Shown here in pieces: positions 3,819 to 61,828 of a stretch of DNA of 63,871 nucleotides. Position numbers and translations under genes: made by a program. Under the pieces are notes generated by a model. It was not told the DNA's origin. It saw only the letters and a program-made list of their open reading frames with translations, and did not search any database. The DNA comes from an archaeon (lineage in GTDB: Archaea > Asgardarchaeota > Thorarchaeia > Thorarchaeales > Thorarchaeaceae), in assembly GCA_024276825.1 (NCBI GenBank), contig JAJRWI010000025.1, forward strand, positions 1-63,871, in the 5' to 3' direction. Each line of letters opens with the position of its first letter. The stretch's first letter is position 1.

Positions 3819-3958
3819 GTGAATCATCCCAAGAATCAGACCAGTTTGTACTTCGCGCCTTTTGGATTTAAGCAAAGCTCTCTGGCAATTGACAGTATTA
3901 ACAAGGTCTCCAAAAAGACATAAGGGAGATAGTGTTTTCATATCATCTGGAGAGGAAA

Positions 3959-12967: not shown

Positions 12968-13099
12968 TTAGCTGTAAATGAGCAAACATTCACAGAAAAG
13001 ATATCTAATAACACATATCATTTTTCAATCTAGAGTATTCAAAAAATGGATTATTTAAATAATTCCATATACACCCAAATGTTCTTGCACATAAAGGCC

Positions 13100-14008
13100 A
13101 TGAGAAACAATAATGACAGGCATCAGTTTGCATGTATGATTTGTGGTGATGAGTTGGTGTATGACACTAAATCTAATGACTACGAATGTATGTATTGTCA
13201 TGAGGTTCAGCAATCACAGATATACTGTCCAAATGGTCATTTTGTGTGTGATGAGTGTCATTCATCCGATGCTATTGGGCTCTTGCAGATGATGTTGGTA
13301 CATGAGACTGAGACCAATCCAATAGAGATTGTAGAGAAGGCATTTGTTCATCAGTCATTCAGCTTTCATGGTCCTGAACATCACAGTTTCGTTCCTACAG
13401 CGATTCTTATAGCTCTAAAGAACAGAAACGTTGCAAGATCAGATGGAGAATCAATCACTGATGAGATCATTCTTGAGGGAATTCGGAGAGGTTCAAAGAT
13501 ACCAGGTGGATTCTGCGGTTATGCTGAGGCATGTGGTGCGTGTGTTGGTGTGGGAGTTGCCATTGCGTTGTTCACAGGATCAACTCCCAAAAAGTGATTT
13601 GAACGAAGGATTGATCATGAGGCCACAGTCACTGCTCTTGCAATGCCACAGGATGGATTGATCAGATGCTGCAAGAGGGCCACTTTCTATGGACTGATGG
13701 CCGCTCATGAGATTTTGGAGTATGAGTTTGATGTTGATCTTGGAATTGATGTTGAGAGCGTGACCTGTAAAAACTCCCATCGCAACCGTTCATTGTAAGT
13801 TGGACATTCTTGGACATCAGAGTCCAGTCCTTCCTAGAACGGCACAGGACTGCTTTTCTCTTGTATGTGTCACACAATTCAAGCTCCTACATTTTTCAAG
13901 GGTTCTATCAAACATTTATTTGAAGAGTGTCCAAGTTTGTCCCATTTCTCAGCATCTGTGCGCAACCCTGATTGTGCTGGAAATGACTGTCATTTTTACT
14001 CTGCATAG
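13100..14008 (+). pseudogene. DUF5714-type Cys-rich protein interrupted by an in-frame TGA (13595-13597) and a 180-bp insertion (13787-13966)
   Basis: CMICG, CMYC, CPNGHFVCDECH, HGPEHH, GGFCG..ACG; read-through gives RCCKR; removing the insert restores ...CKNSHRNPDCAGNDCHFYSA*. Confidence 0.8.
13787..13966. mobile_element. ~180-bp non-autonomous element, copy 1
   Basis: Near-identical to 61300-61484; interrupts a coding frame precisely; sub-terminal inverted repeats TTGGACATTCTTGGACA / TGTCCAAGTTTGTCCCA. Confidence 0.8.
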
Positions 14009-46400: not shown

Positions 46401-46448
46401 ACAATAAAGTTCAGTACCATCCGAAACAAAGGCTTAAAATGTGCCCAC

Positions 46449-46506
46449 TGCCGTTCCTGGAAGGACAGGAATATTATGTCCAAGAATGTCCAACTTACAA
46501 TGAACG
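46449..46506. mobile_element. Partial third copy (one end) of the ~180-bp element, inverted relative to copies 1 and 2
   Basis: TGCCGTTCCTGGAAGGAC...ATGTCCAAGAATGTCCAACTTACAATGAACG matches the reverse complement of 13787-13844. Confidence 0.75.
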
Positions 46507-46862
46507 GTTCTGCTTCATTGGGGCTGGGTTCCAATTCAGCAATGGCATCATACCTGTTACATCTGGGTCTATAGTGATGGATAGTGGACAACTAGCTATG
46601 CCTAATAATACAATATCCATTTGAAACAGGTGTTTATGGTGAAACTTAATGCAATCCTTAATAGCCTCATTCTTTTTCTTATTTTCACAACACCTGTTTC
46701 GTTTCCTTTTTTCCTCTTCATTCGAGTTCAAATCATATTCTCTCGCAAGGCACTTACTTTGAATACCTTTTTCAATTTAGACATCTTGAGTTTCTAAACT
46801 CTACTCGAATTGACACCCTCTCTTATCAACCACTCAGTCAAACAATTCGAGTATCAAATGCC

Positions 46863-61163: not shown

Positions 61164-61299
61164 TGCAAATTACTATTTAAGAATTTTGCAATGATAATGC
61201 ATACCTAATTTCAACTACCAATTAAAACAATTTATTTTAAACGATGATTAGCAATGTAGAAATTCATGACTGATTGCAACCTTCATTTCATCTCTTCAT

Positions 61300-61484
61300 C
61301 GTTCATTGTAAGTTGGACATTCTTGGAAATCAGAGTCCAGTCCTTCCTGGAACGGCACAGGACTGCTTTTCATTTGTATGTTTTGTGTCACTCAATTTAG
61401 GATCATACATTTTTCAAGGGTTCTATCAGACATTTGTTTGAAGAGTGTCTAAGTTTGTCCCATTTCTCAGCATCTGTGCGCAAC
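61300..61484. mobile_element. ~185-bp non-autonomous element, copy 2
   Basis: Matches 13787-13966 with about a dozen substitutions and one 5-bp indel (manual count). Confidence 0.8.
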
Positions 61485-61828
61485 CCCCATTCCATTGTCC
61501 CACTCACAGAATCCCCGTGCGTACTCATTAGGTATTCCAGTTGTTTCAGTAACATAGTGATGAATATTATATAGTAATGTCCAAGCCCAGCATAAGTTGA
61601 AACCAAGTCCCAAGAGTCACTAAGAAGACACTTCCCATAAGATGTATACGAGTTCACATCTACAAAGTAATCAAGCTATCCTGCAAGTGAATCGGTTATC
61701 GCATCCCTCATTTCATGTTGGAAGTGTCCTTCTGTATGAATTGTAGTTGCATCGACTTGAACTATTGTTAAACCAATTATTGCGAAAACAAGCAGGGATA
61801 CTCCTATTGATTTAGAAATATATTTCAT
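61485..61828 (-). pseudogene. Decayed secreted-protein gene (signal peptide, in-frame TAG at 61676-61678) running into element copy 2
   Basis: MKYISKSIGVSLLVFAIIGLTIVQVDA...LAG*LDYFVDVNSY... continues in frame. Confidence 0.5.

Follow-up and report, generated by a model that had tools for sequence, protein, structure and literature searches.

Gene-less repeats of a Thorarchaeia genome, very probably derived from an IS607-family insertion sequence, with a putative omega-RNA core at the right end

Introduction

Insertion sequences (ISs) of the IS607 family have neither inverted repeats nor a target duplication; they have a GG core and phased subterminal repeats, the first of them some 20 bp inside the end (PMC6188088). 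In the IS607-type element of Clostridium botulinum, ends of 60 bp suffice for excision and integration driven in trans by TnpA; the target-adjacent motif (TAM) is TGGG versus TCGG at the right end, and the omega RNA ends in UCGG (bioRxiv 10.1101/2023.11.20.567912). Gene-less units have also been described. Standalone mobilized omega RNAs are known (PMC10691335), and a PATE (palindrome-associated transposable element) with IStron ends has been shown (10.1101/2023.11.20.567912). Here we describe a short repeat that has three copies in a stretch of 63,871 nucleotides (nt) from a Thorarchaeia archaeon (GenBank assembly GCA_024276825.1, contig JAJRWI010000025.1, positions 1 to 63,871 of the forward strand), which we call the window. 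The repeat is very probably a MITE (miniature inverted-repeat transposable element) that arose from a Thorarchaeia IS607-family insertion sequence by internal deletion of its genes.

The repeat shares its basic anatomy with IS607 of Helicobacter pylori, IS1535 of Mycobacterium tuberculosis, and ISC1926 of Sulfolobus, which likewise lack inverted repeats and a duplication and have GG at their termini and in their target. As in the family at large, the subterminal repeats are one helical turn apart and begin about 20 bp inside the left end, and the parent encodes TnpB plus a serine recombinase with an N-terminal MerR-type helix-turn-helix (HTH). Unlike IS607 elements, the copies described here encode no protein. 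The mechanism is already known from bacterial IS607 work; in literature searches we found no paper on IS607-derived MITEs in Asgard archaea. The assignment provides an explanation for a repeat family of Thorarchaeia that gene callers and Rfam had missed, and it guards against mistaking the repeat for a new class of RNA or a new recombination system.

Results

A gene-less repeat family and its gene-bearing relatives

The genome assembly comprises 2.94 Mb in 82 contigs and is 98.3% complete; the window is its contig C14. A repeat profile was built from 19 genome copies aligned after BLAST and was then run over the whole genome. It gave 64 matches, 33 of them full length (159 to 191 bp; mostly 183 to 191 bp, with three shorter), and the flanks of the full-length copies were unrelated to one another. 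An earlier note, made from the letters of the window, had reported three copies of a miniature mobile element; this number is correct for the window but not for the genome. Among other sampled genomes, 17 of 24 from the same family also had the right end of the repeat, and none of 16 from outside that family did.

Two of the copies in the window are full length, and both had been located by the earlier note to within a few nucleotides (13787-13966 and 61300-61484). Copy 1 occupies 13786..13968 on the minus strand, for a net insertion of 180 bp. Copy 2, also on the minus strand, occupies 61299..61486; it has a 5-bp internal insertion, and its right-end junction is GA instead of GG. The two are about 90 to 91% identical to each other, and copy 1 is 98.9% identical to the copy at C73:58020-58202 and 97.3% identical to that at C49:3720-3902. 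Identities of up to 98.9% between copies point to recent movement. Copy 3 (46413..46507, plus strand) is truncated at its 5' end. It had been noticed as a one-ended inverted copy of 58 nt (46449-46506), which is real, but the profile extends it to 95 nt (profile positions 95 to 189). What remains of copy 3 is the right end, with both of its boxes and the structured core described below; neither the left end nor the TATA-like box is present. The copy matches our RNA model, R1, at 84 bits. Because truncated copies begin at differing profile positions (95, 96, 110, 113, 116, 117, and 125), we dropped the idea that they share a truncation point that marks a start of transcription.

The parentage of the repeat was revealed by a longer copy of the kind that the earlier note had proposed to look for in a genome-wide count. 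This copy, C81:166258-166828 (minus strand), is 568 bp long and has the same two ends with two coding remnants between them. The first remnant corresponds to residues 1 to 112 of the TnpA protein of relatives: a MerR-type HTH (HTH_17) is followed by RCVVYARVSS, the start of the Resolvase domain, in which YARVSS is the serine-recombinase active-site region. The second is the C-terminal ~55 residues of a TnpB, among them the zinc ribbon and its ADVNAARNI, and its stop codon falls within the structured core. In relatives the full TnpA (for example, the ORFs at L060:1492-2100 and L058:1492-2112) is 203 to 207 amino acids (aa) long, with the MerR HTH at residues 4 to 51 and the Resolvase domain at residues 68 to 199 (E value, 1e-20). 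Elements of relatives that share the right end, two of three of which also share the left end, encode a TnpB of 712 to 735 aa (L053:1205-3409, minus strand; L054:2375-4573, minus strand; L056:1751-3886, plus strand). Both membership in the IS607 family and descent from an element with tnpA and tnpB can thus be read from these sequences.

The C81 copy also sets the polarity of the element. Its tnpB 3' end adjoins what the earlier note had named the left end, which is therefore the transposon right end, and the note's right end precedes tnpA and is the transposon left end. The names of the two ends are reversed accordingly throughout this report.

The long TnpB distinguishes this lineage from known IS607 elements. 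It is about twice the usual size, and Pfam covers only its C-terminal RuvC and zinc-ribbon part; it may interest those who work on TnpB, Fanzor, and genome-editing nucleases. In four relatives, an open reading frame (ORF) of 382 to 385 aa lies convergently behind a full tnpA (L060:2109-3254, minus strand; L062:2106-3257, minus strand; L063:2-1150, plus strand; L065:2102-3256, minus strand). Those of L060 and L062 were scanned and matched no Pfam family. It may be a passenger, or the element may have three genes of its own.

An origin from IS110/IS1111, as a non-autonomous derivative, would also suit an element that has a structured noncoding end and no terminal inverted repeats; the enzyme would then be a DEDD transposase, and the structured part a bridge or seek RNA. 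In addition, the one IS110-family gene of the genome (PF01548 plus PF02371) adjoins sequence of a copy. That element, at C81:172958-174478, has its own, differing ends, however; it lies between the left-end boxes and splits the copy at about profile position 32. It is nested within the copy, so it inserted into the repeat and is not its parent, and the copy that does retain gene remnants between these ends has a serine recombinase and TnpB. We give the IS110 origin almost no credence. The nested element (DEDD_Tnp_IS110 plus Transposase_20; 1.5 kb; locus L031) is the only IS110-family element of the genome; the MITE copy that surrounds it is C81:172799-174511, and the ends of the IS110 element carry TGTGCAAT and ATTGCACA.

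Junction rules and the insertion of copy 1

The tips of the element have only GTT...AAC in common. As the earlier note had stated, there is no longer inverted repeat, either in the 19-copy alignment or in the profile of the 33 full copies. A logo of the junctions, which the note had also suggested, gave GG at both ends. The left-end junction reads N, G (38 of 43 copies), G (41 of 43), G or A, and then TTGCGCG. The right-end junction reads CAATGAAC, G (46 of 53), G or A (G in 44 of 53), and then a pyrimidine in 53 of 53 (T in 42, C in 11). The junction G's are kept in 83 to 95% of copies, and the sequence further out is random. In its own orientation (minus strand of the window), copy 1 reads flank-G-GG-TTGCGCAC...CAATGAAC-GG-T-flank. 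Its right-end core is at 13786..13787 and its left-end core at 13966..13967, each CC on the plus strand and, at the right end, GG on the element strand; position 13968 is the extra target G of GGG. The right-end pyrimidine was seen at every junction, including those in the window at 13785, 46508, and 61298.

A target duplication longer than GG is impossible, because GGG never equals GGY. The junctions are a case of core homology, with GG at both ends and no target-site duplication, as had been proposed from copy 1. That proposal drew on the identity of the target of copy 1 with the end of the element over CGCAAC. The identity is real at copy 1, where it extends to CGCAACC, but it is special to that copy; family-wide, the match of target and end is only GG, which a G precedes on the left side and a pyrimidine follows on the right.

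The target site of copy 1 could be reconstructed from a gene. Copy 1 interrupts a DUF5714 gene (13046..14008, plus strand; PF18978 match) in its 3' end, leaving coding parts at 13046-13786 and 13967-14008. The orthologue in a genome of the same genus (P0001) ends ...KNRDCAKEDCIFY, and the window reads ...HRN, the element, and then PDCAGNDCHFY in one frame. By this comparison, copy 1 inserted exactly 180 bp into CAATCA-GGG-TTGCGA. The reconstruction favors the second and third left-end G's as the core and G-GG-Y as the target. Because the copy 1 target shares 7 nt with the left end (CGCAACC, plus strand), the choice of the crossover pair of G's depends on this single reconstructed site, a point that counts against our account of the junctions. 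When all 33 full copies were excised in silico, spanning ORFs were found under both readings of the core, and Pfam searches of the flanks did not separate the readings. Relatives offered no usable empty site at the DNA level, being too diverged outside genes. Exact-pattern scans of metagenomes found no empty site of copy 1 or of C73:58020, in a collection that may lack close records.

A second informative empty site was sought at C4:3977 and rejected because its left flank is noncontiguous. The locus is of some interest in itself. At C4:3975-4163 (locus L027), orthologue alignments of a winged-helix protein of ~545 aa start exactly at the right-end junction of the MITE, and the first ~225 residues of the protein were not found upstream. 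These observations point to an element-associated deletion or rearrangement.

At 13595-13597 the DUF5714 gene further contains a premature TGA in frame. The same-genus orthologue has ordinary residues there, so the TGA looks like a nonsense mutation and not a selenocysteine codon. The earlier note had placed all three copies in or beside decayed genes. For copy 1 this is so, the host gene being both split and interrupted by the TGA, but copy 3 lies 13 nt past a gene that is intact and as long as its orthologues; the association is established for copy 1 only.

At each end of the repeat are two TTGGACA boxes at 10-bp spacing, inverted between the ends and 60 to 99% conserved. They are offset by 21 to 22 nt from the left-end tip and by 12 nt from the right-end tip, in agreement with the paired GGACA boxes and unequal offsets of the earlier note. 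In copy 1 the right-end boxes, two TTGGACA, are at 13800..13816 (plus strand), and the left-end boxes, TGGGACA plus TTGGACA, are at 13928..13944 (minus strand), inverted relative to them. TTGGACA-N3-TTGGACA matches mark the boxes of copy 2 at 61313-61329 and 61446-61462 and the box pair of copy 3 at 46477-46493. The window contains five matches to this pattern, all of them within copies, where 0.82 were expected, and none of 100 shuffles reached five. By analogy with IS1535 (PMC6188088), we take the boxes to be candidate binding sites of the MerR-type HTH of TnpA, although each end has two clear boxes here versus four in the left end of IS1535.

These data bear on two further explanations. An IS200/IS605 PATE, for which a Y1 HUH transposase would read subterminal hairpins and move the element in single-stranded form, would likewise have no inverted repeats or duplication; it could have the subterminal hairpin found near one end and the adjoining TnpB remnant. 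It is nonetheless very unlikely to be what we see. No Y1 domain (PF01797) was found in the genome, and the parental transposase is a serine recombinase with a MerR HTH. GG stands at both junctions; IS200/IS605 elements insert 3' of a fixed tetra- or pentanucleotide, and this lies on the left flank alone. PATEs use Y1 transposases and hairpin ends, whereas the parent here has a serine recombinase and the ends have phased direct-repeat boxes, not one hairpin each. The other explanation, that the repeat is a classic DDE MITE or else a dispersed cellular RNA gene or a repetitive extragenic palindrome (REP)-like repeat that does not transpose, we regard as improbable in the extreme. The copies are short, numerous, and mostly intergenic, as it would have them, but they have no terminal inverted repeats, no duplication, and no Rfam match; one is a precise 180-bp insertion in conserved coding sequence, and near-identical copies sit amid unrelated flanks. 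The view of the earlier note, a non-autonomous element moved by a site-specific recombinase and not by a DDE enzyme, is thus supported. Of the enzymes that it named, the serine type agrees with the TnpA remnant and with the TnpA of relatives, and the IS110/IS1111 type, which it had put first, can be set aside, the sole IS110 being nested in one copy.

In the target of this lineage, GG is preceded by an extra G and followed without exception by a pyrimidine; the second rule is stricter than what has been reported for bacterial IS607. The left side, N-G-GG, and the right side, A-C-GG, are parallel to TGGG and TCGG of C. botulinum: as in the IStron of that species, the right-end boundary is CGG, and an emptied site would have GGG where an occupied site has CGG, a likeness in sequence pattern. 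The G-GG-Y target, the TTGGACA boxes, and the difference of GGG and CGG at the two ends are rules drawn from the natural junctions of an IS607 lineage in archaea.

Covariation in the right end

The best-conserved part of the repeat is the ~75 nt of the transposon right end, which overlaps the tnpB stop codon in full-length relatives and ends ...GAACGG at the boundary. We aligned 55 right ends from this genome and its relatives. They have an inner hairpin of the form (U/C)CC(A/U)G, an 8-nt loop UGCCGUUC, and C(U/A)GG(A/G), which is 85% paired; one of its pairs varies between CG (28 sequences) and UA (20). Its covariation score was reached by 0 of 500 shuffles. When the 3' partner was slid by 1 to 3 columns, 27 to 46% were paired, and the range for all slid controls was 18 to 46%.

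A covariance model, one of the analyses proposed in the earlier note, was then available as a second test. Model R1 comprises the inner hairpin and an outer helix, AGUCU/GGACU; it was built from 17 copies and was searched against loci without seed copies. It found 52 distinct non-seed matches, in which the inner helix was 88% paired and the outer helix 75%. Four pairs per helix vary on both sides (4 of 5 in the outer helix), and another helix pair shows AU/UA exchanges. Both helices show compensatory changes and exceed the shuffled and slid controls. Matches of R1 overlap the ends of tnpB at L056:3845-3920 (the ORF ends at 3886) and at L054:2341-2417 (the ORF ends at 2375, minus strand); there is also a match at L053:1167-1256.

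In copy 1 the core extends over 13819..13861 on the minus strand. Its outer helix pairs 13858-13861 with 13819-13822, and its hairpin spans 13826-13851, with the inner stem at 13832-13836 and 13845-13849. The hairpin described from the window in the earlier note, CAGTCCT/AGGACTG, does exist in the subfamily found there, but its register is only 61% paired family-wide. A related register is 85 to 88% paired, with exchanges of CG and UA. Two outer pairs of the first register do fit (UA 27, AU 7, UG 8); with a bulge on the 3' side, they can stack on the stem that has the better support. The small structured RNA that the note thought possible is probably carried, but it would be read from the opposite strand. 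From its sequence and position, the right-end core is probably the 3' part of a TnpB omega-RNA scaffold.

Upstream of the core is a degenerate TATA-like box, at 13875..13882 on the minus strand in copy 1, where it reads TTGAATTG; the family consensus is TTTAAATAG. The box corresponds to profile positions 88 to 96, which are 50 to 80% conserved. It is a candidate internal promoter.

The hairpins could, alternatively, not belong to an omega RNA at all. They might be kept for reasons at the level of DNA, as extra TnpA sites or as a remnant of tnpB coding sequence, or they might be a terminator, and the repeat would then be a plain transposase-end MITE. This explanation is possible but doubtful. 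GGAC-A-GGAC upstream of two GTCC boxes resembles further half-sites, fold energies are unexceptional, both strands have similar alignment-fold energies, the genome is without a matching TnpB, and the subfamilies may descend from different parents. However, compensatory exchanges preserve pairing in copies that have no genes (across both tests, CG in 26 to 28 sequences versus UA in 20 to 21, and AU/UA elsewhere), and on the tnpA-to-tnpB strand G.U cells are twice as numerous as A.C cells (60 to 27). Moreover, a recombinase of double-stranded DNA has no known need of a hairpin, and the position of the core and its ...CGG end fit characterized IS607 omega RNAs (10.1101/2023.11.20.567912).

Several results tell against the omega RNA and its use in this archaeon. 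The outer helix shifts register between subfamilies, and its pair counts come from a model-fitted alignment, which is biased toward the structure. Single-sequence folds were no more stable than those of shuffles (z from -1.7 to +0.9) and included competing structures. RNAalifold gave no pairs on a plain MAFFT alignment of the 55 right ends, for which reason we drew the structure manually and checked it against controls, and RNAalifold energies for the two strands were similar when full copies were aligned to the profile. The covarying part is only ~45 to 75 nt, which is short for a TnpB scaffold. When 15 loci were scanned against Rfam (E values up to 1), the sole match was to a snoRNA and is due to chance. 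A transcription start ~26 nt past the TATA-like box would be placed immediately beyond the outer helix's 5' strand. Finally, the partner proteins are missing: in this assembly we found no Resolvase domain and no intact TnpA, nor any TnpB matching the long TnpB beyond the C81 remnant. Neither mobilization in trans nor use of the RNA by TnpB is possible from the assembled DNA.

A model of mobilization and guide-RNA use

Without an intact TnpA or a matching TnpB, the copies in this genome are probably stranded at present. No parent was found, yet copies are 97 to 99% identical, so the parent was either recently lost or not assembled. The anatomy of the repeat and the biology of its family lead us to infer that the copies are mobilized in trans, that the RNA is transcribed, and that TnpB uses it, in the following manner. 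TnpA supplied in trans would bind both TTGGACA boxes at each end by means of its N-terminal MerR-type HTH, pair the ends, and swap strands across the GG dinucleotide. The element would exit as a double-stranded circle, with a junction that reads GAAC-GG-TTGCG, and enter a new GG, preferably in G-GG-Y; the donor joint of copy 1 would read ...CAATCAGGGTTGCGA... Exchange of GG by a recombinase accounts for the lack of both terminal inverted repeats and a target duplication. The right-end RNA would serve as a guide for TnpB, with host DNA just past the right end as the spacer. A matching TnpB would cut the emptied site (...GGG plus flank) and spare the occupied one (...ACGG plus flank).

A more speculative proposal is that the copies are self-transcribed guide-RNA genes, each with ends, a TATA-like box, and an omega core, that parasitize the parental TnpA for moving and the parental TnpB for retention by homing, and that have outlived the parent here. 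We think this unlikely. If it were true, the genome would hold about 50 orphan guide-RNA loci, which an incoming element could rearm or the host could use.

Related units have been built or found elsewhere. Like the mini-IS of the C. botulinum IStron, the copies have no protein and only the left and right ends; the mini-IS was built in the laboratory, whereas the copies are natural (64 matches), have an archaeal host, and contain no group I intron. Like standalone omega RNAs and PATEs, they are gene-less mobilized units that keep transposon ends plus a guide-RNA scaffold, putative in this case, and they occur in a genome alongside, or descended from, effector-carrying elements. The published examples that have been tested act with an effector in the same genome, whereas this assembly is without a matching TnpB or TnpA.

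Other IS607-like and TnpB-like sequences

Two other groups of sequences in the genome resemble parts of such elements. A TnpB-like ORF of another lineage lies at C24:45269-46948 (locus L029); it matches PF07282 and, weakly, PF01385. It is only 33% identical to the long TnpB over the zinc ribbon, and no right end of the MITE type is nearby. A second, unrelated family of IS607-like remnants is found at C47:1-340, C36:1-266, C28:81873-82217, and C4:71388-71738. Its members have a MerR HTH plus AVYARVSS and then become noncoding, and shorter repeats of ~113 bp derived from them occur on C28, C56, C7, and C35. Two copies of this family are at contig starts, so the family may break the assembly.

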